From Christensenellaceae bacterium (lineage in GTDB: Bacteria; Bacillota; Clostridia; Christensenellales; UBA1242), in the NCBI GenBank assembly GCA_031256235.1, contig JAIRQZ010000032.1:5224-69223 (forward strand): a stretch of 64,000 nucleotides of DNA, written 5' to 3'. Shown here in pieces: positions 19,795-49,180 of the stretch. Both the position numbers and the translations under genes were made by a program. Positions within the stretch are counted from its first letter, which is position 1. Every line of letters begins with the position of its first letter. Under the pieces are notes generated by a model that saw nothing but the letters and a program-made list of their open reading frames with translations, was not told where the DNA came from and made no database searches.

Positions 19795-21576
19795 CTATTG
19801 CTCCATCCTATAGTAACGCTTTGGCCCATGCAAAAACAAAAGCAGAAACGACACAAGCGCAAACGTGCACGAAAGTGGCAGATATATAAGGCGGTCATAG
19901 GTTCCGATTTTGAATATAAATTTGACAAGGCCTCCCATCTCCATGACGCCCGCCATAGTTTCAAACAATCCTCCAAACATCGATACGATGCCCAACAGTG
20001 CGCCGACACCAAGTCCCGCGCCCATTATAAGGTTCACGTGGGCGGTGGATTTTACAAGTTCACCGCCGCCGATTTGGTTGCAAAGTGGCTTTCGGATATC
20101 AAGGTACATCCCAAGGCATATGTAACCTATGACAAGCGATATCGCCAAACCAAAGATGTATATCGCGTCGGTTACGGGGACTTTCATAATCATGTCGGAA
20201 AGGTTGCTTGGCTTGTATGGAAGTGAAATCATTGCTATGGCTACGGCAACCGCGACAAGCACGGGAAAGAATACTATCCCGGCCTTGATTGCGATTTGTT
20301 TACGGAACGATACGGGTATAAGTTTTGTATGATAAATGTTGTGGCCTTCACGCGTGATTGCCGACGCCGCAAAAGAACTTGAAACAGGCATCAAAATCAT
20401 GATAACGAAAAGCGATGCACCGAAAATAAGGTCTTCGGCAAGTTTGGCATTGTATTGTTGGAAAGTTTGGAACGCCGCGACCATGGCGACGCGGTTACAA
20501 AAATACACAAGCAACGGAGTCAGCACCACAAGCAACAAAAATTGAAAAGTGTAATTGCTTGAACGAAAGATATTAAGACAGTCTTTTCGGATTGTGGCGA
20601 ACAAAGGCTTGCTTCGTTTGTAGGGGGCTTTTTTCTTTAGTGCCGACAGCATAGTCCTTTCGTCCATATAGGTTTTATAATAATTGCGCCCTGCGACGAC
20701 AATTCCGACCGCAAGAAACACAAGCGAGATACCGATGACCGCGATAAGCCCCATGATTGACCAAACAATTCCTTCGTTAAAGACCTTTGCGAAAAGCCAT
20801 TGCACACCAAAGACTTGGCTTACGAACCGTATACCACCCTGCTTTGACAAAAGCATACGTTCAAGGCCTGCGTTATCCAACAGTGCAAACAGCGTGCCGT
20901 TGATGACTTGCATATAACCAATCACCATGCCTATTAACAAACCAAAGTATATAAATGTGGTAAGCATTTGACGGCTTCGCAGGAAATTGACCACACGTTG
21001 AACAGGATACATTACCAAGGAAGCCAAGAAGAATGGGAAAAATGGCGCAAGCACAATTATAAATGGAACGAATAAATAATATCCAAAGTTCATTCCGACA
21101 GCAGTGCCGAACGCAATCAAAATCGGTAACAGCAGGCACGCGGTAAATATAAGTTCGTTCAAATAGGCAACGATGATTTTCGATATGAAAATTTGTTTGG
21201 GCGAAACAGGCCAACGCAAAAGCATCTCGCGATCATTGTTGATATCAAGGGTTCTTATAAGCATCGGTAGCATAAAACACGTTTCAATAGTATGAAAAAT
21301 CACAAACGAAAAAACCAAAAACGCATGCGAAAGGCCGTGCTTTATAAATTGGTCGGCCAACATACCATAAACAAAACTGAAGCCCACGATCGCGGCAATC
21401 GCGATTCCTGCAATGAGCCCAAGTTTGACAATTGTACGCGCTTTGCTTTTGCCACGGGGCATTTTGACACCAGCCTTGAATTGCAGTTTAATCAAGGTCC
21501 ATATGGACGTCCAAGACGCACGGAAAGCCACCATTTTCGGCGACATGCCTTTCGTTTTGCCCGCGCCACGCGTCAT
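19795..21576 (-). CDS. polytopic membrane protein, putative ABC exporter permease
   Basis: 593 aa with at least 12 hydrophobic segments. 4-nt start/stop overlap with the upstream ABC ATPase. Confidence 0.7.
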   Translation of the reverse strand: MTRGAGKTKGMSPKMVAFRASWTSIWTLIKLQFKAGVKMPRGKSKARTIVKLGLIAGIAIAAIVGFSFVYGMLADQFIKHGLSHAFLVFSFVIFHTIETCFMLPMLIRTLDINNDREMLLRWPVSPKQIFISKIIVAYLNELIFTACLLLPILIAFGTAVGMNFGYYLFVPFIIVLAPFFPFFLASLVMYPVQRVVNFLRSRQMLTTFIYFGLLIGMVIGYMQVINGTLFALLDNAGLERMLLSKQGGIRFVSQVFGVQWLFAKVFNEGIVWSIMGLIAVIGISLVFLAVGIVVAGRNYYKTYMDERTMLSALKKKAPYKRSKPLFATIRKDCLNIFRSSNYTFQFLLLVVLTPLLVYFCNRVAMVAAFQTFQQYNAKLAEDLIFGASLFVIMILMPVSSSFAASAITREGHNIYHTKLIPVSFRKQIAIKAGIVFFPVLVAVAVAIAMISLPYKPSNLSDMIMKVPVTDAIYIFGLAISLVIGYICLGMYLDIRKPLCNQIGGGELVKSTAHVNLIMGAGLGVGALLGIVSMFGGLFETMAGVMEMGGLVKFIFKIGTYDRLIYLPLSCTFALVSFLLLFLHGPKRYYRMEQ

Positions 21577-27736: not shown

Positions 27737-28408
27737 ATGAAACGAATCGCATCAGTTTTCTTGTTGTGCGCAATTTTAATCGTATCGTGTTCTTTCGTCG
27801 GTTGCACAAGTGCGGAAGAATTACCGTTTCGACAAGAGCAAACAAAGTTCATCGCCCACAGGGGTTTGAGTAGCGTATACCCCGACAATACGATTGAAAG
27901 TTTTACGGCGGCGGGCGGAAGCGACTTTTTTTGGGGAATCGAAACCGACGTTTGGTACATCGGCGATACTTTTTATTTATCGCACGATTGGCCCGAATAT
28001 TTATTCGGATTGCCTACACTTGAAGATTACCTACCGATTTGCAAATCACACGGGAAAACGGCGGTCATTGACATCAAATCAAACCTTACGTTCAAGGCCG
28101 TGCAAGACCTTTTAAATTTGACCGCTGGTTATGACGTCATGTTTATTGATTTCAAGGAAAACGACTTAAGAATGATTAAAAGTCTGTCGCCCCGTGCCCA
28201 TGTCCAACTTCTTTCGCATGATTATTGGCCCGCCAATCACGATTTTGATGTAAGCCTTGATTACCCCGCCTTGACGCGAGGAGTTGTTAATAATGCAAAA
28301 ATTAAGAACAAAGAGATAGCCACTTGGACAGTAAATTCAAAAGAAGAAGCCCAGGCCTTTGTCGATATCGGCGTTGATTATGTGACTACAGACTGTATAT
28401 TTTTTTGA
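27737..28408 (+). CDS. glycerophosphodiester phosphodiesterase-family lipoprotein
   Basis: Signal/lipobox (LIVSCSFVGC). FIAHRGLSSVYPDNTIESF and GIETDVW match GDPD hallmarks. Confidence 0.78.
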   Translation: MKRIASVFLLCAILIVSCSFVGCTSAEELPFRQEQTKFIAHRGLSSVYPDNTIESFTAAGGSDFFWGIETDVWYIGDTFYLSHDWPEYLFGLPTLEDYLPICKSHGKTAVIDIKSNLTFKAVQDLLNLTAGYDVMFIDFKENDLRMIKSLSPRAHVQLLSHDYWPANHDFDVSLDYPALTRGVVNNAKIKNKEIATWTVNSKEEAQAFVDIGVDYVTTDCIFF

Positions 28409-29731: not shown

Positions 29732-32700
29732 TTATGCTTCTTTGCGACGCAAAAAGTACAAAACAACAAGCCCAGCAACCGCAACAAGTCCAACTCCGCC
29801 ACCGATAAGCCCGAACAACAAGCCATTTGGTGCGCCACCTTTAGTTCCGCCACCCGTGCTTGCTTGAAGTGCGCCACTTGCAGGCTTTGTGCGTACTGTA
29901 TCAACAAATACGATGCCTTCGTTATAGTTTTCGTCGCCGATAAATTTCATGTAAATGTCATACTCTTCATCCGAACGCAAATTTTCAAACGAGCAATCGG
30001 CATACCATTCTGCATCTTCGGCCAAACTTTGACCTTTTCGTGTGATTGAGTATTGCACCTCTTGACCGTTATAGTAATGTTTGCCGTCGTTGCCGATTTC
30101 AATGCCTGTTTCGATTATAACAAGGTCAATTGCGTTTTTATCGCTGTTAACTTCACTGAATTTGCCGTTCCATTCTGTGCTTGGAGCCTTTGCGATAACC
30201 AATGTTTTGCTTTCGGTTACTTCGCAGTAATTATCGTTGCCCGTATACGTGACGACAACGGTGTATGTTCCAACTGCGGTAGGCGCGTTGTCAAGTTTAG
30301 TCGCGTCCTTATAGTATTCGACTGTCGAATTGTCGTATGTGCCTGTGATACTTGTTTTTACAGTTCCTGTTTTACCATAAACCCAACCATCGGTTCCCGT
30401 AATTGTAAGAACTCCTGTTGCGCGTTCAATCACGATTGTAACGGCCGAATCAAACACGGTTTCGGCGACATCGTCTGTGCCGTGTACTGTGATTACCACA
30501 ATATATTCGCCCACAAGAGTTGGGATTTCGGTAAATGTTTCTGTTGTACCGACTTTGACAAATTCGATAGTATAATCGTCAAAGTATTCACTTAAGTCGA
30601 TAACGATGCTGTCGCCGTATGTTGCCTCGATGACAAGGTCAACAAGTTCGTCGGGCAATGCATAGAACGGCAAATCCGAGATAGTGAATTTGCGTGTAGC
30701 GGTGTGCGACAGATAGTTCGCGGACTCGGCCCAAACGGCACGAATCGTATAGTCGCCAGGGATAAAGAATCCGTCTGCATCAAGTGGCAACGCCGACATC
30801 CAAATACCGTCCTCGCCCGCGTATTCAAAGGTCGGGATTACACCTGACCATTCTTCGACGAATGTTGTGGTGCTGTATGGGTTTGCAATTTGGTCGAATC
30901 TCCAACCAGTAATCCTTACCGAGCCATTACCTACGCCCTTTGCAATCACAAGTTCGCCCACAATAAATGCCACGCTTGCGTTGTAATAAGTTCCCGCCGA
31001 CAATGTTACTTCGACTTGATATGTACCCGCGTTGACGGGCTTGATATCCGAGTCGTAACCGTTGCCGATATAGCGAACGCTTACAATGCCGTCGTATTCA
31101 GGGAACACAGGTGCGTATTCAACCAACACATTATAGACATTACCGTACACTACGCCAGAGGCGATTTCGACAAGTACGTCCGCGGTGTTGATGTCGTGTT
31201 TTTGGATTGAGAACGTCAAAACAATATCGGTATAAACATAATTTGTACCTTCAAGCGTTATTTTAAGTTGATAATTTCCTATGATTGTAGGTTGTATGCC
31301 TTTGGCTAATCTTACGCCAAATTCATCAAAAGGACGGCTACCCGTTGCAATGTCGGTATAGTCGGCCGTGCATGAACTTACATCGCCGAATGCATTAGCA
31401 TAGTCAACGATGATGCTGTGTTCCAACTCGCCGTATTTCCATGTGATGTTCTCTCCACCAAAGACTTGTACTCCGCCGAAAGTGACAGGCACGATACCCG
31501 CTTTTTTAGAAACAGTAACCGTTACGATTTTGTTTTCAACTTTTTTATAATTGCCGTTCGGGTCTGTCCAAGACGCAAAGAATTTTTGCTCGCCAGTTAC
31601 CCCGCCCCAGGTTACATCGTCAACAACAAGACTTTGTCCCGCATCCCATGTCCAGTTTGCAGGCAACTTGGCATTGGTGAGGGTATCGCCATACGTCGCG
31701 ACGATTCCTGTCGGAGTACCACCCGTGACTGCATCGGTTGCAGTGCCGACAGTTATAGTAAACAGTTGGTTTAATTCACCGACTTTAACGCCAGAATTGT
31801 TTATGATATCGGCCGTCATAAGGTAATCTGTGCCGACCGAGTTCGGCAATGCCGTCGAGCCGTTGTATCTTATAGTGTTGCGAGTTGCGGTGATGTTTAC
31901 GTTGTTGGCATCTCCCCACTCCGCAACATCGGTCGGTAAGGTCGGTACAAAGTTGGTAACGCCATAAGCCGTACTAATCGCGCTTCCCGCATTGACAACG
32001 CCGTTCGCGGTCAAAACAGGTATTGAATAAAATCGGGCTTCGTAAGCGGTTTGAACCAAGTCAAAATCCGAGGTATTAAGTGACAATTTTTTGATTGGGT
32101 CTCCGTGGCTGTCCCATTGAACAAAGAAGTTGTTGGCTTTCCAATTTGCGCTGACAATATTATTGCGAACATTCAAAAATGTTCGTACAGGATTGCCGAT
32201 TTTTACTTCAAGGCCAGCAATATCGGCCGTGGAAGTCGCCGAAACCGTACCCTTGTTTGTGTCGTTGGACGCGAAAGTGATGCTGTTTGGAATTTCGGTA
32301 TAAGTGGTTGTATAGGTAAGGCCTTCGAAAACTGCGGCAGATTGCATGTTTGCGCTTGCGGTGCTGTCGTATCCGCTACAATGGCTGGACAGTTTAACCC
32401 AAAATCCGCCATTCGTTGCGACGTTGACCATTTGTTCCGAAGTCAATGAATATGAAAGGCTTCGGAAAGCGTTCCAGTTATTATTTGCGGTTCCTGTGAA
32501 ACCATAGTGCGTTCCCGCTCCGCCCGAAGTAGAGTTGCGCGGTGAAGAATAAATATCTCCCTTGCGACTGTCGGACATACGACGTGTATCCATTCCTGGA
32601 TTTGATGCACCGCCACCGCCATAGTTAAAGGCAAGCGGGCTTGTATTTTGTTTGTAACTTAAGTCAAAAAAGGTCTCGGTACCACCGTGGGCCGTTGTTG

Positions 32701-33985
32701 TGATGCGGTCTATGTTGGCGGCAACACCAAAATAAAATGTGAAATCAAAAGTACGCAAAACTCCGCGCTTCATCGCTTCGTTCAAATCACCGCCTACATT
32801 AACCCATACTTGCAAAGCCATAGTCGCGGCTTCTTGGCTTCCAAAAAGGTCGTAACTGTTGGATTTATTAAGATAGTTGCTGTATGCAAGTGCATTGCCT
32901 TGGTTGCTGTTTTGCGGGCCGCGTTGACGGATGTCATATGACCCAGTCCATTCGGTTGTGCCCATTCTTTTCGTGGAACCGCTTGCCGCCAAATCATTCA
33001 AGTCCATTACATATCCGCTTGAGGCATTGAACGGAGTGTTGAATACTCGGCGAGTGTCGGTACCTTTTTTGCTACCATCGCCGATGTTCCCGTTAAGCCC
33101 CGAACCCGAAGAGATGATGTCTTGTTTAAGTTTGGTTTCCGAAGCGCCCTTGATACCTTCCCTTGGGTTGCAAGTAATGCCTTCCAAAACGCAAGCGGCT
33201 TCAGCCCACAAAGTGCCGGAGCCAGAGTTATTTGCAAACGCGAACATTTTGACCCAAAAGTATCCACGGCTTGCCAATTCTGTTAACTTTGTGCCTGTGA
33301 AATTGTAATAAGATTCACGCCAACCGCAAGCATTTTTCGAATTATTTTGCACCATACCTTCGTTGCGTTGGGTGCCTGTGCTTGGGTTAAGTGTCCTTGT
33401 GCCTGTGTATGCGCTGTAGATATTGCCTGCACCGCGAAGGCTGTTTGCGTCGGTTGCGACGTCGGCAGAGTTCAAATCAAAAAAGCCTTGCAATGTCGCC
33501 CCGCCACCGTTCGAGAAGGCATATATTGCATATGTAAATCCGAACTCGACGCTTGTTACTGTTTTGTTGTTGATTGCGGACAAAAGGTTACCGTTGACCG
33601 CGACTTTGACTTGGACAGACTTTGCAAAGTTCACACTTCCGCCAGAGTTGCTTGAACCAAAGTCTGTATACGCAACAGGCGCAGGTGCATACCCGTTTCC
33701 AATCAAGGTCGAGTTTTCCGGACCACGCTTACGCATATCTTCGTTTATGTAATTGCTTGTCCCAAAATACGGCCTTACTGTTGTACCGACCAAGCCGTAC
33801 CCAACATTCGAAAAACTTACATCGTTGTTGCGGATTACATTTCCGCTTCGTTGTGCGGTGTCCGCGGCAGCATGCAGTTTGGCACCGCCAAAATCGGCAC
33901 CGCCAACCATTGCCACGCCAAACGCCAACATTGCTATCATTACTATGCCTGCGAACGCAGACAAGACATATTTAAATTGTTTCAT
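29732..33985 (-). CDS. 1417-aa cell-surface protein (signal peptide, duplicated novel N-domain, MBG-like Ig repeats, C-terminal TM anchor)
   Basis: N-terminal signal/TM. C-terminal GLLFGLIGGGVGLVAVAGLVVLYFLRRKEA. Repeated ...GTYxVxVT...NY...xIxKA modules (e.g. VGTYTVVVTYTGNDNYCEVTESKTLVIAKA). GAGGAG RBS. Confidence 0.8.
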   Translation of the reverse strand: MKQFKYVLSAFAGIVMIAMLAFGVAMVGGADFGGAKLHAAADTAQRSGNVIRNNDVSFSNVGYGLVGTTVRPYFGTSNYINEDMRKRGPENSTLIGNGYAPAPVAYTDFGSSNSGGSVNFAKSVQVKVAVNGNLLSAINNKTVTSVEFGFTYAIYAFSNGGGATLQGFFDLNSADVATDANSLRGAGNIYSAYTGTRTLNPSTGTQRNEGMVQNNSKNACGWRESYYNFTGTKLTELASRGYFWVKMFAFANNSGSGTLWAEAACVLEGITCNPREGIKGASETKLKQDIISSGSGLNGNIGDGSKKGTDTRRVFNTPFNASSGYVMDLNDLAASGSTKRMGTTEWTGSYDIRQRGPQNSNQGNALAYSNYLNKSNSYDLFGSQEAATMALQVWVNVGGDLNEAMKRGVLRTFDFTFYFGVAANIDRITTTAHGGTETFFDLSYKQNTSPLAFNYGGGGASNPGMDTRRMSDSRKGDIYSSPRNSTSGGAGTHYGFTGTANNNWNAFRSLSYSLTSEQMVNVATNGGFWVKLSSHCSGYDSTASANMQSAAVFEGLTYTTTYTEIPNSITFASNDTNKGTVSATSTADIAGLEVKIGNPVRTFLNVRNNIVSANWKANNFFVQWDSHGDPIKKLSLNTSDFDLVQTAYEARFYSIPVLTANGVVNAGSAISTAYGVTNFVPTLPTDVAEWGDANNVNITATRNTIRYNGSTALPNSVGTDYLMTADIINNSGVKVGELNQLFTITVGTATDAVTGGTPTGIVATYGDTLTNAKLPANWTWDAGQSLVVDDVTWGGVTGEQKFFASWTDPNGNYKKVENKIVTVTVSKKAGIVPVTFGGVQVFGGENITWKYGELEHSIIVDYANAFGDVSSCTADYTDIATGSRPFDEFGVRLAKGIQPTIIGNYQLKITLEGTNYVYTDIVLTFSIQKHDINTADVLVEIASGVVYGNVYNVLVEYAPVFPEYDGIVSVRYIGNGYDSDIKPVNAGTYQVEVTLSAGTYYNASVAFIVGELVIAKGVGNGSVRITGWRFDQIANPYSTTTFVEEWSGVIPTFEYAGEDGIWMSALPLDADGFFIPGDYTIRAVWAESANYLSHTATRKFTISDLPFYALPDELVDLVIEATYGDSIVIDLSEYFDDYTIEFVKVGTTETFTEIPTLVGEYIVVITVHGTDDVAETVFDSAVTIVIERATGVLTITGTDGWVYGKTGTVKTSITGTYDNSTVEYYKDATKLDNAPTAVGTYTVVVTYTGNDNYCEVTESKTLVIAKAPSTEWNGKFSEVNSDKNAIDLVIIETGIEIGNDGKHYYNGQEVQYSITRKGQSLAEDAEWYADCSFENLRSDEEYDIYMKFIGDENYNEGIVFVDTVRTKPASGALQASTGGGTKGGAPNGLLFGLIGGGVGLVAVAGLVVLYFLRRKEA
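32306..33823 (-). repeat. internal tandem duplication of a ~220-240-aa domain within the surface protein
   Basis: Residues ~55-272 versus ~318-560 share ordered anchors: MRKRGPENS/IRQRGPQNS, FFDL/FFDL, GYFWVKM/GGFWVKL, VLEGIT/VFEGLT. Confidence 0.6.
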
Positions 33986-34117: not shown

Positions 34118-34202
34118 GCGACCGTGGCGGAACTGGCAGACGCGCAGGACTAAGGATCCTGTCTTTCACGAGGTGGAGGTTCAACCCCTCTCGGTCGCAC
34201 CA
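34118..34202 (+). tRNA. tRNA-Leu, anticodon reads AAG (A34), type II, CCA encoded
   Basis: Acceptor GCGACCG/CGGTCGC; D stem GCG/CGC; anticodon stem CAGGA/TCCTG with 7-nt loop CTAAGGA (U33-AAG-G37); long variable arm; T arm GGAGG-TTCAACC-CCTCT; A + CCA. Confidence 0.85.
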
Positions 34203-34270
34203 AACGGAACAAATAAGAACCAGATTTGTCCCCAAAAGAAAGCAATTGACTGTCTTTTTTATATAAACTT

Positions 34271-34299
34271 TTGACACTTTTTTTACCATGGTTTAGAAT
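34271..34299 (+). promoter_or_regulatory. promoter of MTase-MTase-nuclease operon
   Basis: TTGACA (34271-34276) - 17 nt - TAGAAT (34294-34299). ATG 34310 is 10 nt downstream with no SD (very short leader). Confidence 0.5.
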
Positions 34300-34309
34300 A
34301 AATATAACT

Positions 34310-34927
34310 ATGGCGCGAAAAACATTTGATAATGCCAAAAAAGCAAAGAATGACGAGTTTTATACACAACTCGCGGATATTGAAAATGAAATGAGACATT
34401 ATCGCAATCAGTTTCGCGGAAAGGTTGTATTCTGCAACTGTGATGACCCTTATGAAAGTAACTTTTTTAAATACTTCGCCATGAACTTTAAGTTTCTTGA
34501 ATTAAAAAAACTTATTGCCACTTGTTATATCGGGTCGCCAATTGCGAACAAAGAACTATCCTTGTTTCCACATGAAAGTGTGGAAAATAAAACAACAAAA
34601 GCACCGCATAAGATTGTTATCAATGAAGCCATTGATGAAAACAAAGACGGCGCGTTTGATTTACAAGACATTGTAACGTCACTTACAAATAATAAAAAGA
34701 ACACATTGACGCGACTGAATAGTGACGGCGATTTTCGTTCGGCCGAATGTGTCGCATTGTTAAAAGAAGCCGACATTGTAGTAACAAATCCGCCATTTTC
34801 ATTATTCAGAGAATATGTTGGGCAACTTGTAGATAATAAAAAAGATTTCATTATCGTTGGTAATATCAATGCTATTACGTATAAAGATATATTCCAACTT
34901 ATAAAAGAAAATAAATTGTGGCTTGGC
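34310..34927 (+). repeat. tandem paralogous repeat, copy 1 (catalytic module of M1)
   Basis: Codons 1-206 of M1 against codons 1-206 of M2: 165/206 identical residues by hand alignment, no indels, offset 1108 bp. Confidence 0.85.
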
Positions 34928-35437
34928 AATACGCATCGGAATCGCGGGCTTGGCATGTTTTTTGATATTCCCGAAAGTGTAAATACCGAAACTGCGACTC
35001 GATTAAAAGACGGAAAAATATTTATTGGCGGTGCAGTTTGGTTTACAACATTAGATACACCAATCAATCATCAAAAGATGACTTTTTATAAGAATTATAA
35101 AGGGAATGAGAGCGAATATATTAAATACGACAATTATGACGCGATAGAAATCAGCAAAACTAAAAATATTCCTGACGATTATTATGGTGCTATGGGCGTA
35201 CCAATCACTTTCCTAAATAGTGGATATAATCAAGAACAATTTGAGATATTAGGGTTCACGCACAGAAATGACCCGTATAAATTAAAAACAAAAATATATA
35301 CAAAAAATGACGCGGAAAACTTTAATGATTTGAATGGAAGCCCAATCATCAGAAGTGGCGATGATGTTAGATTTGCTTATATGCGAATAATTATTAAACG
35401 GAAAAGGGAAACACGGAATGGCAACAAAAAACTTTGA
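34310..35437 (+). CDS. N6-adenine DNA methyltransferase, EcoRI-methylase-like (M1)
   Basis: KNDEFYTQLADIE...GKVVFCNCDDPYESNFFKYF N-terminal region as in EcoRI-type MTases (by recall). Catalytic motif IV VVTNPPF at 34787-34798. ATG 34310 (MARKTF); the track TTG 34271 is the -35 box. Confidence 0.85.
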   Translation: MARKTFDNAKKAKNDEFYTQLADIENEMRHYRNQFRGKVVFCNCDDPYESNFFKYFAMNFKFLELKKLIATCYIGSPIANKELSLFPHESVENKTTKAPHKIVINEAIDENKDGAFDLQDIVTSLTNNKKNTLTRLNSDGDFRSAECVALLKEADIVVTNPPFSLFREYVGQLVDNKKDFIIVGNINAITYKDIFQLIKENKLWLGNTHRNRGLGMFFDIPESVNTETATRLKDGKIFIGGAVWFTTLDTPINHQKMTFYKNYKGNESEYIKYDNYDAIEISKTKNIPDDYYGAMGVPITFLNSGYNQEQFEILGFTHRNDPYKLKTKIYTKNDAENFNDLNGSPIIRSGDDVRFAYMRIIIKRKRETRNGNKKL

Positions 35438-36035
35438 CGGGGCAAAGCGGAATAAAGCCGATGAGTTTTACACTCAACTTTCTGACATTGAAAAAGAAAT
35501 GCGTTTTTACCGTGAGCAGTTTCGTGGCAAAGTCGTCTTTTGCAACTGTGACGACCCATTTGAAAGTAACTTTTTCAAATATTTCGCAATTAACTTCAAA
35601 TTTCTCGAACTAAAGCAACTGATTGCAACTTGCTATATAGGCTCGCCAATCGCGAATAAAGAACTGTCTTTGCTCCCACATGAAAGTGTGGAAAATAAAA
35701 CAACGAAAGCGCCACACAAAATTGTTATAAATGAGGCGGTTGACGAAAACAATGACGGTGCTTTTGATTTGCCAGATATTATTTTATCTTTAACCAAAAA
35801 TAAAAACAACACATTGACACGCTTGAATGATGACGGTGATTTCCTCTCCGCTGAATGTATTGAATTGTTAAAACAAGCAGATATTGTAGCCACTAATCCA
35901 CCATTTTCATTATTTCATGAGTTCATAGACCTAATCATAAAACATAAAAAACATTTTATCATTATAGGGAATCAAAATGCGATAACGTATAAAGACATAT
36001 TTGCTCTTATAAAAGCAAATAAATTATGGCTTGGC
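35418..36035 (+). repeat. tandem paralogous repeat, copy 2 (catalytic module of M2)
   Basis: See copy 1. DNA stretches are near-identical (e.g. ccacatgaaagtgtggaaaataaaacaac in both). Confidence 0.85.
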
Positions 36036-36497
36036 TTATCCATGAATGGCAGTAACCGTTGGTTTAGGGTTCCAAATGACTATGCGTTTAGTGAAAATGC
36101 AAAACACAAAGTTGACGAACAAGGGTATCATTACATTTTTGTAAACAATGTTGTATGGTATACAAACATGGATACACCAAAAAGACATGAAAGAATTACT
36201 TTTTATAAAAAGTATTCAAAGACAGAACACAAGCACTTTGATAATTACAATGCAATAAACGTAGACAAAGTAACAGACATACCTACTGATTATTTTGGTG
36301 ATATAGGTGTGCCTATCTCGTTTATGCACAAATATAATCCAGAACAATTTGAAATTGTTGATGCCTTAAATCGTTACGCATTATTAGACACTCAAAACAC
36401 TAACGAAGCGGTTCGTAATGCAAAATCGCATACTTGTAATATTAACGGTATTGCCACATACTTTAGAATTGTCGTTCGCAAAAAGGAGAATACATGA
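35418..36497 (+). CDS. N6-adenine DNA methyltransferase, EcoRI-methylase-like (M2)
   Basis: Paralogue of M1 (KADEFYTQLSDIE..., VVFCNCDDPFESNFFKYF, IVATNPPF at 35895-35906). Divergent C-terminal ~150 aa. The start overlaps M1 by 20 nt. Confidence 0.85.
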   Translation: MATKNFDGAKRNKADEFYTQLSDIEKEMRFYREQFRGKVVFCNCDDPFESNFFKYFAINFKFLELKQLIATCYIGSPIANKELSLLPHESVENKTTKAPHKIVINEAVDENNDGAFDLPDIILSLTKNKNNTLTRLNDDGDFLSAECIELLKQADIVATNPPFSLFHEFIDLIIKHKKHFIIIGNQNAITYKDIFALIKANKLWLGLSMNGSNRWFRVPNDYAFSENAKHKVDEQGYHYIFVNNVVWYTNMDTPKRHERITFYKKYSKTEHKHFDNYNAINVDKVTDIPTDYFGDIGVPISFMHKYNPEQFEIVDALNRYALLDTQNTNEAVRNAKSHTCNINGIATYFRIVVRKKENT

Positions 36498-37588
36498 AAA
36501 TAAAGTTACACGAGATAACAATTCGCGAAGTAGTCGAAAAGTACGTTGATAATGACGAAGAAGGTGTTATCGGTTTTGATGGCAAATTAAACATTCGCCC
36601 CAAATATCAACGTGAATTTGTTTATGACGACAGAAAGCGTAGTGCGGTTATTGAAACAATTCGCAAAGATTTCCCGCTTAACGTAATGTATTGGTGTAAG
36701 AACGAGGATGGTACATTCGAGGTTCTGGACGGACAACAGCGAACAATTAGTTTTTGTCAATTTATCAAAAGTGACTTTTCAATAATGGCCGACGGCCACA
36801 CAAAATATTTTCATACAATGACCGAAACAGAGAAAAACCACATCTTGAATTACAAATTGTTTGTTTACATATGCGAAGGCAACGACAAAGAAAAACTTGA
36901 TTGGTTCCAAATTATCAATATTGCGGGCGAAAAATTGACCGACCAAGAATTACGAAATGCCGTTTACACGGGTACATGGCTATCGGATGCAAAATTAAAG
37001 TTTAGTAAAAGCAATTGCGTCGCATATTTGCATTCAAAAGATTATGTCAGTGGGGCTACAATTCGACAGGAGATACTTGAACTTGCTTTATTATGGATTA
37101 GCAAAGGCAATATCGAAAAATACATGTCCGCACATCAACATGACCCAAACGCAAATGAATTGTGGACGTATTTCAGAAGTGTAATAGATTGGGCGCGTCT
37201 TACTTTCCCCAAAACACGAAAAGAAATGAAGGGTATCAACTGGGGCGGGCTTTATGACACTTTCAAAGACAAAATGTTTGATACAAATAAACTTGAACAA
37301 GAAATCCAAAAACTTATGATTGACGATGATGTAACAAATCAAAAAGGTGTTTACTATTATGTTTTGACACGTGACGAAAAATATTTGAATATTCGTGCAT
37401 TCAGCGAAAGTCAAAGGCGGACGGCATTTGAAAAACAAGAAGGTATTTGTGCTAAATGCAAAAAGCAATTTCAATTAAATCAAATGGAAGCAGACCACAT
37501 AACTCCATGGAGTAAAGGTGGTAAAACAAGCAACGATAATTGCCAAATGCTTTGCCAAGAATGCAACCGCCGAAAATCGGCGATATAA
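36494..37588 (+). CDS. DUF262 (ParB/Srx-like, DGQQR) - HNH endonuclease fusion protein
   Basis: N-terminal FEVLDGQQRTISF (36728-36742). C-terminal zinc HNH CAKCKKQF...EADHITPWSKGGKTSNDNCQMLCQECNRRKS (37448-37585). AGGAG RBS. The ATG overlaps the M2 stop (ATGA). Confidence 0.85.
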   Translation: MKIKLHEITIREVVEKYVDNDEEGVIGFDGKLNIRPKYQREFVYDDRKRSAVIETIRKDFPLNVMYWCKNEDGTFEVLDGQQRTISFCQFIKSDFSIMADGHTKYFHTMTETEKNHILNYKLFVYICEGNDKEKLDWFQIINIAGEKLTDQELRNAVYTGTWLSDAKLKFSKSNCVAYLHSKDYVSGATIRQEILELALLWISKGNIEKYMSAHQHDPNANELWTYFRSVIDWARLTFPKTRKEMKGINWGGLYDTFKDKMFDTNKLEQEIQKLMIDDDVTNQKGVYYYVLTRDEKYLNIRAFSESQRRTAFEKQEGICAKCKKQFQLNQMEADHITPWSKGGKTSNDNCQMLCQECNRRKSAI

Positions 37589-39439: not shown

Positions 39440-41590
39440 TTAAGGCTTGCCTGGCCTGTAGACAAGATTATCAAATGCGTCTTGCAATCCGTCCAAGACC
39501 CTTTGCAATTCTTGTGCCGTTGCAAATTCGTTCAGTTTCGGATACTCGATCTTGGCCCTTTCCCACGGCAACCATGTTTCGGTCGTGTAGTTACCGCTTG
39601 CAAAATCCTCACCGTTAGCACCTTTTTGGGTGTTTATCAAATTGTTTATTGCCGTACGCAAACTGCTCCTTAAGATTTTGTCGTCAGGCTCAAGCGCTGT
39701 TGCGGCGGCACGAAGTGCGGTAAGCGTTGATGCCATAGCCGTCAGCATCAGGTCGCTTCTGTCGGATTTGTTGTTATCCACAAGCAACGCTTGAGCAGTA
39801 CTTAAGCGGGTTGCAAATGTCGCCCATTTGGCGTCGGCACTGTACAACGCCCCATCCAAATCTTTGACAACAAGATAGTATTTTTCAAGATTGGAATACG
39901 CCAAGGTGATAAGTCCTTCCATTGCGACTTGCAAATCGTGCTCTTTAGCGTGTAGTTTGTCGCTTGCTAAAAAGTCGTCTTCGTTTGTTTGTTCAAGCAA
40001 CATCCTTGCGCTTGTCAATGCCAAACGATAAGTTGTCCATGAAGCCGTAGAATAAATTTGTGTGTTTGTATCTTTCAAATCTGTATAATTTGCCTCGCCG
40101 ATACGTGCAAGCGCATCGTTGTAGATAAGTTGCAAACTGTAATATGCGATCGTCATATGCCCGTCGTAGGTACCCCTTAATCGCATAAATGTAATAACAT
40201 CCGTGGGCGAATAAGTCTTCGGATGGAGCATCGAATAAGGCATAGATACAGAATCGCTGTGTTCGTTAATCGTGCAAATAACGTTGAACGTGCCTATGTT
40301 TTTTGTGACAATGTCAATGCCTAACGTCGCCGAAGACCATGTCGAACCTGTCCATTGCCAACAGCCTTGTGCTCCTACCGCAACGTTCAAGTTTACCCAA
40401 ACGTCCGAGGCTTCAAGCGTATACTCGCCAACGTTGCCGTATTCTGGTTCATAGTCCACGAACGCTTTGCCGTCCCACATCTTGACCCCCGTATATGGCG
40501 ACGACGTAGGGGGCGCACCAGTTGTCCCGTTCCATAAACAAATAAGCATGCCTTCTTTCAAAAAGGACGTGTCTGTCGGTAAAGTCGACCTAAAGTAGCC
40601 CCTGACTTCTTCTGGCCTGATGCCTATTTCTGTTTCTTCTTGGGTTATGTCTAAACTGTATAATACGATGTTGCTACCGACAATATTATAATAAAATGTT
40701 TTTGTCTCGGTCACGTTGGTCGAGCCAAACAAGTACTTGTAAGTAACTGTTCCCTGCGCAGTAAATTCCAAGGTATGGCTGTGCTCCACGGCCGATGGGT
40801 CTTCCAACTTGGCGCAATTCATACCCCATATCGAGTCCGCAACCTCTGGCTTGTACCCGCAACCGTAAGTGCATATTGTCATGTATGCCCCAGCGCCTTC
40901 TAACCTGTCGCACCCAGAAACCACGCGTTCTACCACTTCAAAGTCGTGTGGCTGTTCGTCACCACCGCATCCGATACAGTAGCAAGTATATCCGTTGGGC
41001 CCATAATGGCTGTGCATAAAGTCTTCGCCACAATGCACACATTGGTCGGACCATGCATCTACCGTGCCATGACTGTGTGGTCCCAAAAAGGTGTCGTATA
41101 CAAAATTATACTTGACACCACAAGTCACACCGCTGACCCTGCGCGTACACTCATAATATGTACAGCCATAGTCGACACATGTCGCATCCATGGTGCGCAA
41201 AACGCCAGAGTGCGAAGAGTAAGAACCAAGCCTCCAGTCTACTTCGTATCCGTCGGTTCTGGCGCCGCTCTCACCACGCGCGCAAACCCTGCAATGCCTC
41301 CAATACCAACTTCCCGTGCAACCGTTTGCCGCAAAAAGTTCTTCCCACCCGTCATCCAAATGTTCTTCATATTCTGGAGTAACACCCACCCAAGGGGTCA
41401 TATTTGACAAAAGATGTGTCCCACCGCCCCCGCACGTTTCCGCCGCAGGAGCATCAAATGTAGGAGCGTCTTGAGTAGCATCCCTTATGTTGGGGTTAAA
41501 TTCGATATCGCCACCGCACGCGGTTAACACAATTCCCGACATCAATGCAATCATGGGAACCACAATAGCGGCAAAAAATTTCTTTAGCAT
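39440..41590 (-). CDS. lipoprotein with Cys/His-rich N-terminal half and three FIVAR-like helical repeats
   Basis: MLKKFFAAIVVPMIALMSGIVLTAC lipobox. About 30 Cys cluster with His in residues ~60-260. C-terminal YT..W..Y..AL..A..LL repeats x3. ATG 41590 is preferred (the promoter abuts it); the track start is 41605. Confidence 0.7.
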   Translation of the reverse strand: MLKKFFAAIVVPMIALMSGIVLTACGGDIEFNPNIRDATQDAPTFDAPAAETCGGGGTHLLSNMTPWVGVTPEYEEHLDDGWEELFAANGCTGSWYWRHCRVCARGESGARTDGYEVDWRLGSYSSHSGVLRTMDATCVDYGCTYYECTRRVSGVTCGVKYNFVYDTFLGPHSHGTVDAWSDQCVHCGEDFMHSHYGPNGYTCYCIGCGGDEQPHDFEVVERVVSGCDRLEGAGAYMTICTYGCGYKPEVADSIWGMNCAKLEDPSAVEHSHTLEFTAQGTVTYKYLFGSTNVTETKTFYYNIVGSNIVLYSLDITQEETEIGIRPEEVRGYFRSTLPTDTSFLKEGMLICLWNGTTGAPPTSSPYTGVKMWDGKAFVDYEPEYGNVGEYTLEASDVWVNLNVAVGAQGCWQWTGSTWSSATLGIDIVTKNIGTFNVICTINEHSDSVSMPYSMLHPKTYSPTDVITFMRLRGTYDGHMTIAYYSLQLIYNDALARIGEANYTDLKDTNTQIYSTASWTTYRLALTSARMLLEQTNEDDFLASDKLHAKEHDLQVAMEGLITLAYSNLEKYYLVVKDLDGALYSADAKWATFATRLSTAQALLVDNNKSDRSDLMLTAMASTLTALRAAATALEPDDKILRSSLRTAINNLINTQKGANGEDFASGNYTTETWLPWERAKIEYPKLNEFATAQELQRVLDGLQDAFDNLVYRPGKP

Positions 41591-41595
41591 AAATA

Positions 41596-41624
41596 AATGT
41601 ATCATCTGTCTTTACAAAAGGCAA
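41596..41624 (-). promoter_or_regulatory. promoter abutting lipoprotein start (leaderless geometry)
   Basis: Minus strand TTGCCT (41624-41619) - 17 nt incl. TGa - TACATT (41601-41596) - 5 nt - ATG 41590. Confidence 0.45.
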
Positions 41625-46051: not shown

Positions 46052-47191
46052 ATGTACCCTGTCTTTCCCGACTACACGAATAATGTCATCAATGTAAGTT
46101 CTACACTTATGAACTTTTTGGGCACAGACAATGGATTGCCGAAAATCAAAGTCTTACAAGACGAGCTTTCAAAAGATTACAAAAACGTTGTCTATATAAT
46201 CGTGGATGGACTTGGGCAAAAGATACTTGATCGTAATCTTAATAAAACCGCCTTTATGCATCAAAACAACCGCCAAACGATTACTACTGTGTTCCCGTCA
46301 ACCACGACCAATGCCACAACAAGTATATTGACGGCGAACTACCCTGCAAGCCACGGTTGGTTCGCGTGGTCGATGAACTTCGGCGACAGGACAATCGAGT
46401 TATTTAAAAACACTGACTATTACACGGGCCAAAAAATATCTGACGTAATTGTCAAAAAGCAACTGCCGTACAAAAACTTTTTTGAAAAGCCCCGCAAAGG
46501 CATATCCACATACACTTTGATGCCCGAAAAAGCCAATGTTGCAACACCAAGTGAAAACGCCTATACCCACAAGGGACCAAAAGACATGTTCAAAAAACTT
46601 GAAATGCTTTGCAAACAAAATGGCAAAAAATTTATCTACAGTTACTTTTGGGACATAGACAACAAAATGCACCAATGCGGGCCCAAAAGCGCAAAAACAA
46701 AAAAGATGGTCAAGCAACTGGACAAACAATTTGAAAAAGTCGTCACAGAAAATCCAGGCTCGCTTTTCGTTTTAACCGCTGACCATGGCCACGTCGACAT
46801 CAAAGGCTTTGTGGACATTTACAAAGACGAAGATATCATCGCCTGCCTTACCGCAAACATATCGCTTGATACACGCGCCACAGGCTTTCACATCAAATCG
46901 GGTATGGAAGGAAAATTTAAATCTGCTTTTGCAAAATACTCTGCCGACTTTGAACTATTTGAAACCTCGGACCTTATCGCCCGTGGCGTGTTCGGCCCAT
47001 TCAAAGGCGACAAGTACAAACAATTCCTTGGCAACTTTATTGCCGCGGGTAAAGATACAGGAAAAATGCTTGTCTTTGCCGAAGGTAAACAAAAAAACTC
47101 GAAAGGTAAAACCCCAGTCAACTTTCGTGGCCACCACACAGGACTTACAGAAAACGAGATGTTGGTCCCGCTTATTATTTCTTCTTGTTAG
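46052..47191 (+). CDS. alkaline-phosphatase-superfamily protein (type I phosphodiesterase/nucleotide pyrophosphatase-like)
   Basis: VVYIIVDGLGQ, FPSTTTNATTSILT, VLTADHGHVD. AAGGAG RBS. Confidence 0.72.
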   Translation: MYPVFPDYTNNVINVSSTLMNFLGTDNGLPKIKVLQDELSKDYKNVVYIIVDGLGQKILDRNLNKTAFMHQNNRQTITTVFPSTTTNATTSILTANYPASHGWFAWSMNFGDRTIELFKNTDYYTGQKISDVIVKKQLPYKNFFEKPRKGISTYTLMPEKANVATPSENAYTHKGPKDMFKKLEMLCKQNGKKFIYSYFWDIDNKMHQCGPKSAKTKKMVKQLDKQFEKVVTENPGSLFVLTADHGHVDIKGFVDIYKDEDIIACLTANISLDTRATGFHIKSGMEGKFKSAFAKYSADFELFETSDLIARGVFGPFKGDKYKQFLGNFIAAGKDTGKMLVFAEGKQKNSKGKTPVNFRGHHTGLTENEMLVPLIISSC

Positions 47192-47975
47192 GGTCGCTGT
47201 GGTCGACGCGCAGATATTTTTTGGTTTCAAACGGAGTTTGTACAATTTGGGCAAAGTCGCGTGGATTAAGCGCCGCGATAGCGAACATAACACCATCGAC
47301 TTCGGGGCATTCAAGATATTCCTTGACGTTAGTTTCGGTAATTTGTCCGCCGAACAAAAGCGTACAGTTCGCGGCCATTGGGTTACCCGTCAATTTGACA
47401 ACCGTTTTACGCATAAAGTCGGCAATGATATTACTGTACTCACCTGTTGTATAAAAGCCCGTTCCGATTGACCATATCGGCATGTAACAAAGCACAACTT
47501 TATCGACTTCACGAACACCCATAAGGCAGTCCCGCATTTGGCGCTCGATAATAACGCGGGTTTGGTCGTTGTCATATTCAATCAAGGTTTCTCCAAAACA
47601 CACAATCGGAGTAACACCATTGGCAAGACATTGTTTGACCTTGCCGTTGATTTGTTGGTCAGTCTCACCCGCCGCACGACGCTCGACGTGACCCAAGATG
47701 CAATATTTGATGCCGATGTTTGCAAGTTGAGCGGCACTTGTTTGCCCAGTGCAAGGACCAGGGCCTTTGTCCGAGCAATCTTGCGCGCCCAGCATAATGT
47801 TGGACGGCACCGAGGCAAGCGCCCCGCTTAAGTGAATCGTGGATGGACAAATGACATAGTCATGTTCCTGTTTGAACAGCGGGCTGTATTGTAAAATCTC
47901 GCGGAACCAAGTGTCCACCTCGCTCATCGAAGTTTTATATGTCTTCCAACTGCCTACGAAAAGGGTCTTTCGCAT
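47175..47975 (-). CDS. tpiA: triosephosphate isomerase homologue with non-canonical active-site residues
   Basis: Occupies the pgk-tpiA position (AGAGGTGA RBS). IMLGAQ, ILGHVERR and PIWSIGTG align to TIM, but NWK reads SWK and residue 165 is Met (codon at 47481-47483) instead of the catalytic Glu. Confidence 0.8.
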   Translation of the reverse strand: MRKTLFVGSWKTYKTSMSEVDTWFREILQYSPLFKQEHDYVICPSTIHLSGALASVPSNIMLGAQDCSDKGPGPCTGQTSAAQLANIGIKYCILGHVERRAAGETDQQINGKVKQCLANGVTPIVCFGETLIEYDNDQTRVIIERQMRDCLMGVREVDKVVLCYMPIWSIGTGFYTTGEYSNIIADFMRKTVVKLTGNPMAANCTLLFGGQITETNVKEYLECPEVDGVMFAIAALNPRDFAQIVQTPFETKKYLRVDHSDPNKKK

Positions 47976-47977
47976 AA

Positions 47978-49180
47978 TTATCTCACCTCTTTAATATTAA
48001 GTAATGCTGCAACGCCTGGCAAGGTCTTGCCTTCCAAAAGTTCCAAACTTGCCCCGCCGCCTGTCGAAAGATGAGTAAACTTGTCCGCCCAACCAAACTT
48101 GGCAACGGTAAAGGCAGTATCTCCGCCACCCGCAATTGTTATGGCCTTGCAATTCGCCATAGCGTTACCAATTTCTTTGGAACCTTGCGCGAATTTATCA
48201 AACTCGGTGACGCCCAAAGGCCCGCACCAAATAACTGTTTTGCTTTTTTGTATAACGCTTATAAAGGCCGCACGTGTCTTTGGCCCGATATCCAAGCCTT
48301 CCCAACCATCACGGATTTCGTTTGTCGCAAAGACACGTGTATTCGCGTCGGGGGCATATTTGTCCGCCGCGACACAGTCGCTTGCAACCACCAAATTAAC
48401 TTTTTTGGCTTTTGCTGTTTTAATAACATTCTTGCAATACTCGACGTTTTCCGCGTCGACGATACTGTTGCCGATTTGCCCACCCGATGCCTTTACAAAT
48501 GTATAGGTCATGCCACCGCCGACCAAAATGTTATCGGCAATTTTCAAAAGGTTGTCCATAACGCCGATTTTGTCTTTGATTTTTTTGCCACCAAAAATGA
48601 TTGTAAGCGGGCGCTTTGGGTTGGCCACGGCCTCGCCCAAAATTTTGACTTCGCGTTCCATTAAAAACCCAGCCACGGCAGGCACATATTTTGCAATACC
48701 CTCGGTCGAGGCGTGAGCCCGATGCGCAGCGCCGAAAGCGTCGTTAACATAATAATCGCACAAGGCGGCCAACTTTTTGGAAAACTCGGGGTCATTTGCG
48801 GTCTCTTCGGGATAAAATCGAATATTTTCAAGATACACAATTTCGCCACTTTTTAACTTTGAAACCGCGTCCTCGACCTTTTTGCCAATGCAATCATCAA
48901 CAAGCGTGATGTTGACGCCCTTAAGGCAATCTTGAAGTTTCTTTACAATCGGTTTAACAGTGAATTGCGTGTCGGCCTTGGATTTTGGGCGACCAAGGTG
49001 CGTACACAAAATTATTTTTGCACCCTTATCAAGGCAGTACTTGATTGTATCCAAACTTTCCCGAATTCGGGTGTCGTCGGTGATGTTGCCTTTGTCATCT
49101 TGCGGTACGTTGTGGTCAACTCGGATAAAGACGCGTTTGTCTTTAATCTCTTTCAAATTCCTTATTGTTGCTTTTTCCAT
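47978..49180 (-). CDS. pgk: phosphoglycerate kinase
   Basis: Full-length PGK (FIRVDHNVP, ILCTHLGRPK, FGAAHRAHAST, GGGDTA...). Confidence 0.96.
   Translation of the reverse strand: MEKATIRNLKEIKDKRVFIRVDHNVPQDDKGNITDDTRIRESLDTIKYCLDKGAKIILCTHLGRPKSKADTQFTVKPIVKKLQDCLKGVNITLVDDCIGKKVEDAVSKLKSGEIVYLENIRFYPEETANDPEFSKKLAALCDYYVNDAFGAAHRAHASTEGIAKYVPAVAGFLMEREVKILGEAVANPKRPLTIIFGGKKIKDKIGVMDNLLKIADNILVGGGMTYTFVKASGGQIGNSIVDAENVEYCKNVIKTAKAKKVNLVVASDCVAADKYAPDANTRVFATNEIRDGWEGLDIGPKTRAAFISVIQKSKTVIWCGPLGVTEFDKFAQGSKEIGNAMANCKAITIAGGGDTAFTVAKFGWADKFTHLSTGGGASLELLEGKTLPGVAALLNIKEVR

Follow-up and report, generated by a model that had tools for sequence, protein, structure and literature searches.

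Triosephosphate isomerase (TIM) is the textbook "perfect enzyme", and its catalytic base, Glu165, is treated as universally conserved. A 64 kb stretch of DNA from a Christensenellaceae bacterium (assembly GCA_031256235.1, contig JAIRQZ010000032.1, positions 5,224 to 69,223; hereafter the window, meaning the whole stretch) carries, in the tpiA position beside pgk, a gene for a TIM homologue with methionine in place of this glutamate. It belongs to a family of gut-associated TIM homologues that all lack the residue. On balance, the protein is probably a functionally shifted tpiA orthologue that can still bind a small ligand, anionic or phosphorylated, and is not a proficient TIM. Residue states, conservation, gene order, selection and fold are shown by the comparisons set out below; the loss of TIM activity, the retention of ligand binding and the order of the substitutions are parts of this proposal that we infer from them.

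The catalytic residues of the TIM-like protein

The genes and sites on which the argument turns are the following (aa, amino acids).

47175..47975 (-): open reading frame (ORF) of the TIM-like protein, 266 aa plus stop; a Met-type member of the Glu-less TIM clade
47978..49180 (-): pgk, a full-length phosphoglycerate kinase (PGK) of 400 aa (PF00162, 504 bits)
47983..47989 (-): GAGGTGA, ribosome-binding site of the TIM-like gene, inside the 3' end of pgk
47943..47951 (-): codons 9-11, Ser-Trp-Lys; the canonical Asn is Ser9 and the catalytic Lys11 is kept (NWK to SWK in the alignment)
47682..47690 (-): codons 96-98, His-Val-Glu; His96 and Glu98 are kept and the canonical Ser96 is Val97 (GHSERR to GHVERR)
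47481..47483 (-): codon 165, ATG, Met at the position of the catalytic base Glu165/167, from the codon and the alignments; canonical TIMs have Glu in 162 of 162
47457..47480 (-): codons 166-173, PIWSIGTG, the loop-6 lid, intact; Pro166, Trp168, Gly171, Thr172 and Gly173 are invariant in the family
47343..47354 (-): codons 208-211, FGGQ, loop 7; Tyr208 and Ser211 are replaced (YGGS to FGGQ)
47268..47285 (-): codons 231-236, FAIAAL, loop 8; the phosphate-binding Gly232-Gly233 pair is Ala-Ile (VGGASL to FAIAAL)

A first-pass annotation of this DNA had described an end-to-end TIM homologue with Met, encoded by ATG at 47481-47483, at the place of Glu165, and both the match and the codon hold. The protein scores 198.9 bits against Pfam PF00121 (gathering cut-off 20.1), with residues 6-246 lying on profile positions 3-243 of 245, and its alignment with solved TIMs and with those of E. 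coli and yeast spans the full length, at 30-38% identity to canonical enzymes. An AlphaFold2 (AF2) model built from a 40-sequence family alignment is confident (pLDDT 90.7, pTM 0.88), and Foldseek superposes it on solved TIMs (e.g. PDB 7rpn, 2btm and 3uwu) with TM 0.86-0.87 and a root-mean-square deviation of 1.5-1.8 A. A model of this confidence and a superposition this close make the alignment at position 165 unambiguous, and Met165 occupies the Glu165 position.

The catalytic motif YEPVWAIGTG reads YMPIWSIGTG (within CYMPIWSIGTG), and FTGE reads CTGQ. The phosphodianion gripper is intact in loop 6 (IGTG) and altered in loops 7 and 8. The further replacements first reported, Asn to Ser, FTGE to CTGQ, GGS to GGQ and VGGASL to FAIAAL, all reappear in the alignments with the solved, E. 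coli and yeast TIMs, and the Lys and His said to be retained (GHVERR) are Lys11 and His96, which are invariant in the family. Together, Met165, Val97, Ser9 and the altered loops 7 and 8 would, judged by residue identity, make the canonical proton-transfer mechanism impossible. All nine NCBIfam TIM models that match the protein score it under their cut-offs (for example TIGR00419, 118.9 vs 130.6; NF000722, 135.4 vs 293; NF011163, 135.5 vs 298), and databases label the proteins of this family triose-phosphate isomerase.

Could another carboxylate have taken over? No Asp or Glu flanks position 165 in the sequence alignment, and a different register that would bring another Glu to the catalytic position is suggested neither by that alignment nor by the Foldseek superposition of the model. 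A carboxylate from elsewhere in the chain might conceivably reach the active site in three dimensions. The one candidate for an alternative catalytic carboxylate, Asp66 (GAQD), was rejected, being also present in 67 of the 162 canonical TIMs.

The positions affected, 165, 96 and 10/11, are those altered in the engineered TIM variants E165D, S96P and N11A. E165D lowers kcat 1500-fold, engineered variants that retain a carboxylate still lose 420-1500-fold activity, and 98% of TIMs conserve Ser96 (PMC12874384); for N11A the drop in kcat/Km is 13-14-fold (PMC10249627). Unlike these variants, the natural protein has no carboxylate at 165, and it carries many further changes.

The start of the gene also bears on the catalytic residues. 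The public JGI gene call P0001 (250 aa) begins at the internal Met17 and so omits 47928-47975, and with it strand beta-1 and the conserved Lys11; homologues favour the 266-aa start at 47975.

A family without the base

A search over 5.8 billion proteins (sources JGI, ENA, NCBI and Logan) returned 73 related clusters at 44-100% identity, and the catalytic Glu is absent from every one of them. Residues were counted in a set of 71 family sequences and in 162 sampled canonical TIMs. Position 165 is Met in 45 family members, Gln in 25 and Thr in one, and at the codon level relatives and independent assemblies carry ATG (Met type) or CAA/CAG (Gln type), not GAA or GAG. Eight sites that are 92-100% conserved in the canonical set are altered in the family: Asn10, Ser96, Glu165, Tyr208, Ser211, Leu230, Gly232 and Gly233. 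Lys11, His96, Tyr164, Pro166, Trp168, Gly171, Thr172, Gly173 and Gly210 are family-invariant. The Lys is found in all 70 ungapped members, with position 9 being Ser in 43, Asn in 22 and Asp in 4 (canonical Asn, 157/157); the His is found in 71/71 and is followed by Val in 62/71 (canonical Ser, 161/162). At the dimer interface Gly76 is always kept and Thr75 mostly. Whether Met165 and the Ser of SWK are conserved in relatives, a question raised by the first-pass annotation, has a divided answer: Glu is absent from all members, whereas Met (45/71) and Ser (43) are each present in only part of the family.

The invariance of Lys, His and the loop-6 lid indicates that selection still maintains a ligand-gated pocket in the Met/Gln family, and the interchange of Met, Gln, Thr and Arg at 165 among relatives (the Arg type is described below) marks this as a position without a chemical role. 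Residue 165 covaries with positions 208, 211, 232 and 233. Gln-type proteins keep Tyr208, mostly keep Gly232 and have Asn9 in 14/25 cases; Met-type proteins have Phe208, Gln211, Ala232 and Ile/Val233.

The family profile was also searched against 1.84 billion cluster representatives. The family representative P0084 reaches 394 bits, against 229 bits for the best full-length canonical TIM, and only two proteins lie between them: P0085, a partial family fragment (269 bits), and P0086 (241 bits), a 640-aa tandem double-TIM protein that keeps Glu. No Glu-bearing form with the other derived residues of the family occurs in this hit list, in which almost all proteins below P0086 are canonical "YEP" types. 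Other GTDB matches with odd His-motifs were set aside as lying outside the clade, with Glu165 present. They are otherwise canonical TIMs in which Ser96 is replaced (GHMERR, GHADRK) or loops are degenerate (L018:9929-10645, L026:1671-2342 and L027:342-1139, from an uncultured Bacilli metagenome-assembled genome (MAG), a Bacteroidaceae bin and the louse symbiont Ca. Lightella).

Selection acts on the TIM-like gene as it does on its neighbour. Its nonsynonymous divergence (dN) is about equal to that of the adjacent pgk in every pair compared (0.129 vs 0.139, 0.208 vs 0.211 and 0.308 vs 0.346), and dN/dS is at most about 0.04-0.12, with synonymous divergence (dS) saturated. A relative-rate comparison took PGK identity as the clock. 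At 44-53% PGK identity, canonical-canonical TIM pairs have a mean identity of 48% and clade-canonical pairs one of 34% (29-39%), whereas the TIM/PGK identity ratio is 0.87 within the clade, against 0.94 among canonical pairs. A burst on the stem followed by renewed constraint suggests a functional shift rather than decay. The family combines three features expected of a pseudoenzyme: an essential residue lost, purifying selection and conservation across species.

A sister family with arginine

A second family, of about 36 clusters, emerges from two further hits of the family profile: P0088 (227 bits) and P0123 (205 bits), the latter a fragment. Its members (P0088 and P0234-P0268) are named "triosephosphate isomerase [Clostridia bacterium]" (e.g. 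MBO5229240.1) and come from ruminant and other gut metagenomes, at least part of them from a ruminant gut MAG set. The Glu position is Arg (CYRPxW). Basal members retain His95 and the GTG tip of loop 6, and derived members have neither (GDGTWR; QRG/ERG). With the family of the window the Arg type shares the absence of Glu165, the derived residues Phe6, Pro57, Cys163, Pro199, Gln211, Thr213 and Tyr220, and the operon of pgk, TIM-like gene and gpmI; it differs in having Arg rather than Met or Gln at 165 and in the loss of His95 and the loop-6 tip by its derived members. In a neighbour-joining (NJ) tree the Met/Gln and Arg-type families are monophyletic with 99% bootstrap.

The PGKs beside the Arg-type genes are themselves unusual. 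They are 350-368 aa long (L032:8956-10008, L037:8947-9999, L033:8898-10004 and L036:2527-3627) and through an internal deletion have lost some 35-50 C-domain residues, among them the GGGM(A/T)YTF motif of the window's 400-aa PGK, which carries the usual motifs. The whole lower-glycolysis operon of this lineage looks remodelled.

Position in the glycolytic operon

In the window, the pgk stop codon TAA (47980-47978) is followed by TT and then by the ATG of the TIM-like gene at 47975, with the ribosome-binding site GAGGTGA at 47989-47983, so that the 2-nt spacing and strong ribosome-binding site reported in the first pass are borne out; the gene is translationally coupled to pgk. The gene order recurs among relatives. 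In all, 39 loci were fetched with flanks of ±8-10 kb. Twelve independent loci were examined for gene order, and in every one of them the TIM-like gene has pgk upstream, directly adjacent in most (the window; L006, equal to L001 and L002; L008, equal to L003 and L004; L005, L007, L009, L010, L011, L034 and L035; and the Arg-type L032/L037, L033 and L036). Downstream, gpmI follows in L007, L009, L010, L032, L036 and L037. Canonical-TIM Bacillota loci (Bacillus) from the same scan have the identical pgk-tpi-gpmI order, in keeping with the earlier placement of the gene in the tpiA position. This shared order makes the TIM-like gene the positional orthologue of tpiA, and not an inserted paralogue.

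Carriers and the search for a second TIM

When one genome per GTDB species was scanned by pattern, the Met/Gln family turned up in six species, each represented by a termite-gut MAG (Co191P1bin89 and Lab288P1 bins 80, 73, 95, 46 and 142). These were described by Hervé et al. (2020), whose supplement assigns them to "Christensenellaceae Gut cluster 13" and bin142 to a "vadinBB60 termite cluster"; the assemblies measure 0.69-1.20 Mb, are 55-87% complete by CheckM and consist of as few as 12-29 contigs (PMC7024585). The carrier genomes come to about 1.1-1.4 Mb. A six-frame hmmsearch with the canonical TIM HMM found no second TIM in the 64 kb window or in loci L001-L031, and the Pfam annotation of called genes found none in L032-L039. 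The window holds no glycolytic gene besides pgk and the TIM-like gene.

What might the protein do?

The proposal runs as follows. The gene would be the operonic tpiA, inherited vertically, of a lineage of uncultured gut Clostridia with small genomes, and an ancestor would have lost the general base, most simply by a one-base change from Glu (GAR) to Gln (CAR). A later change from Gln to Met would mark the branch that includes the window, and remodelling of the catalytic pocket and of two phosphate-gripping loops out of three would have followed. The TIM barrel, with Lys11, His96 and the loop-6 lid, can most likely still close on a small ligand, anionic or phosphorylated. With the base gone, abstraction of the C1 proton would be lost, and the protein would not be proficient at isomerising dihydroxyacetone phosphate (DHAP) to and from glyceraldehyde 3-phosphate (GAP). 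Strong purifying selection within the pgk-(gpmI) operon would then act on a ligand-binding role, either non-catalytic (a pseudoenzyme serving as sensor, buffer or partner) or in a different reaction. The first-pass annotation had named neofunctionalisation, a pseudoenzyme and an alternative base as its three options; all three are retained as the set to choose from, with the alternative base disfavoured by Met, Gln, Arg or Thr at 165 and by the lack of a new conserved acid.

Several considerations weigh against this proposal. The loss of activity is deduced from residue identity. Invariant Lys, His and loop 6 would equally fit an enzyme that still does chemistry, and staying in a glycolytic operon is the behaviour expected of a working TIM. 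The phosphate pocket is itself altered, and the ligand is putative. The search for a further TIM copy covered the 64 kb window and the flanks of the 39 loci. Long-branch attraction between two fast-evolving groups may inflate the monophyly seen in the NJ tree, although the shared derived Phe6, Pro57, Cys163, Pro199, Thr213 and Tyr220 speak against such an artefact.

A bolder version can be put forward only tentatively, as a possibility well short of even: these small-genome gut Clostridia may be without any working TIM, and the Glu-less protein may have a new role in lower glycolysis, such as the binding of 3-phosphoglycerate (3-PGA), 2-phosphoglycerate (2-PGA) or phosphoenolpyruvate (PEP). 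A neutral (Gln/Met) or cationic (Arg) residue 165 would favour carboxylate-bearing ligands of the kind that the products of pgk and gpmI make or use. Canonical TIM binds PEP (PMC3971408), and complexes of canonical TIM with 3-PGA and 2-PGA are among the structural matches of the model (PDB 3uww and 3uwv). The residues that contact PEP in TIM (Asn11, Ser211, Gly232 and Gly233) are among those replaced here, and the idea of a carboxylate ligand is speculation. If there is indeed no working TIM, this would be a natural, selected TIM lineage lacking the catalytic base, the first of its kind, and would exemplify a central carbon metabolism that is free of TIM.

How do other explanations fare? A neofunctionalised enzyme, in which Lys11 and His96 work under a closing loop 6 on another phosphorylated or carboxylated substrate while a canonical tpiA or a TIM-independent route (e.g. 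phosphoketolase) takes care of triose-phosphates, is rather unlikely, at perhaps one chance in a handful. It draws on the invariance of Lys, His and loop 6 in the Met/Gln family, on the stem burst followed by constraint, on the covariation of 165 with 208, 211, 232 and 233, which suggests a re-tuned pocket and not decay, and on a phosphoketolase gene upstream of pgk in the sister lineage (L033). The neighbourhood, however, yields no candidate reaction or substrate, there is no new conserved acid or base residue, and the loss of His95 and the loop-6 tip in the sister family is hard to square with a shared new chemistry. It is improbable that the protein is still the cell's TIM, working through another base (water, His96 or the substrate phosphate) or at a low rate that suffices for a slow-growing symbiont. 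The gene still fills the slot between pgk and gpmI under a constraint equal to that on pgk, the protein retains Lys, His, Glu98 and loop 6, no second TIM appears in the window or the fetched flanks, and the carrier genomes are small, all as such a role would have it. But Met, Gln, Thr and Arg cannot act as a carboxylate base and interchange freely among relatives, E165D alone has the severe cost given above (PMC12874384), Asn10, Ser96, Ser211 and Gly232/233 are also replaced, and the cut-offs of all NCBIfam TIM equivalogs are missed.

A redundant dead copy beside a canonical TIM encoded elsewhere, for instance as a regulatory heterodimer partner, would suit an obligate dimer such as TIM (PMC10249627) and the retention of interface Gly76 and, mostly, Thr75. 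This is very improbable in view of the very small assemblies, of the ancestral operon position, which is no secondary locus, and of the lack of a second TIM in the window or the 39 loci. A sequencing or assembly error, or a decaying pseudogene, would have in its favour only the prior expectation of an invariant Glu165, and is ruled out by 73 independent clusters without Glu, an intact ORF with a confident AF2 model, dN/dS of about 0.1 or less and a dN equal to that of pgk.

Known relatives and significance

Canonical TpiA (EC 5.3.1.1, PF00121) has in common with the window protein its fold, Lys12, His95, Glu97, Cys126, Glu129, Tyr164, Pro166, Trp168, the IGTG of loop 6 and the pgk/gpmI position; Glu165, Asn10, Ser96, Tyr208, Ser211, Leu230 and Gly232-Gly233 are all absent from the window protein. 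The PGK-TIM fusion of the Thermotoga type (NF010569/PRK13962) is the best NCBIfam hit of both the pgk product (548 bits) and the TIM-like protein (169 bits). In the fusion, as here, pgk and tpi are tightly coupled, but the window has two ORFs in different frames, 2 nt apart, and the combined score is far under the 883-bit cut-off. The TIM half of the fusion keeps the catalytic Glu. TIM paralogues of the PRK15492 and PRK14905 types are weak hits (88.5 and 93.7 bits), far below their cut-offs of 509 and 485. TIM-fold paralogues with other substrates, such as the L-erythrulose-1-phosphate isomerase EryH/LerI, are still proton-transfer isomerases and keep the Glu.

A literature search found no account of a natural Glu-less TIM lineage, of a TIM pseudoenzyme, of TIM-lacking organisms or of the metabolism of "Gut cluster 13". 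Metabolic reconstructions of these termite- and ruminant-gut lineages probably over-call a complete Embden-Meyerhof-Parnas (EMP) pathway. A deep clade under purifying selection with Met, Gln or Arg at 165 amounts to a natural experiment on the TIM barrel minus its base, and raises the question of how gut Clostridia with genomes of about 1.1-1.4 Mb handle DHAP.

Neighbouring genes and the rest of the window

Apart from pgk and gpmI, neighbours are not conserved across the loci of the clade. In the Lab288P1bin73 lineage (L003/L008:8062-9929) pgk and the TIM-like gene are separated by three inserted genes: a 147-aa ORF without assignment, a Cof-type HAD phosphatase (PF08282) and a His_Phos_1 phosphoglycerate-mutase-like gene. 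In the window a convergent gene at 46052-47191 (+), for an alkaline-phosphatase-superfamily phosphodiesterase (PF01663, 379 aa), overlaps the 3' end of the TIM-like gene by 17 nt; this arrangement, continued by rubrerythrin and an HD hydrolase, is also found in the relative L035 and is absent from more distant clade members.

In one Arg-type locus pgk and the TIM-like gene have a phosphoketolase (XFP) gene (L033:6456-8873) as their immediate upstream neighbour. Catabolism that ran through phosphoketolase would have no need of TIM. Phosphoketolase was rejected as a recurrent neighbour: its homologues in L038 and L039, which lie outside the Met/Gln clade (housekeeping identity 43-46%), are not beside pgk. 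A comparison of the accessions of phosphoketolase homologues with those of family members gave no link to the Met/Gln MAGs, none being in the MCL222xxxx, MCL258xxxx or MCL275xxxx blocks.

The window has a GC content of about 44-46% and carries the housekeeping genes spoIIE, recR, secA, tuf, dnaE, typA, hisS and rubrerythrin; an Rfam scan found three tRNAs only. Four large ORFs on the minus strand have no Pfam match at E<=1e-5: 29735-33985 (1417 aa), 16800-19322 (841 aa), 39443-41605 (721 aa, for which the threshold was E<=1e-3) and 19798-21576 (593 aa). A tRNA at 34118-34199 is followed by tandem EcoRI-like adenine methyltransferases (34271-35437 and 35418-36497) and a GmrSD_N/HNH nuclease (36494-37588), and the stretch 34118-37588 resembles a small restriction/defence islet. 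At 27737-28408 (+) lies a gene for a glycerophosphodiester phosphodiesterase (GDPD), which could be a DHAP-independent source of glycerol-3-phosphate for lipids, a point that matters if TIM does not function.

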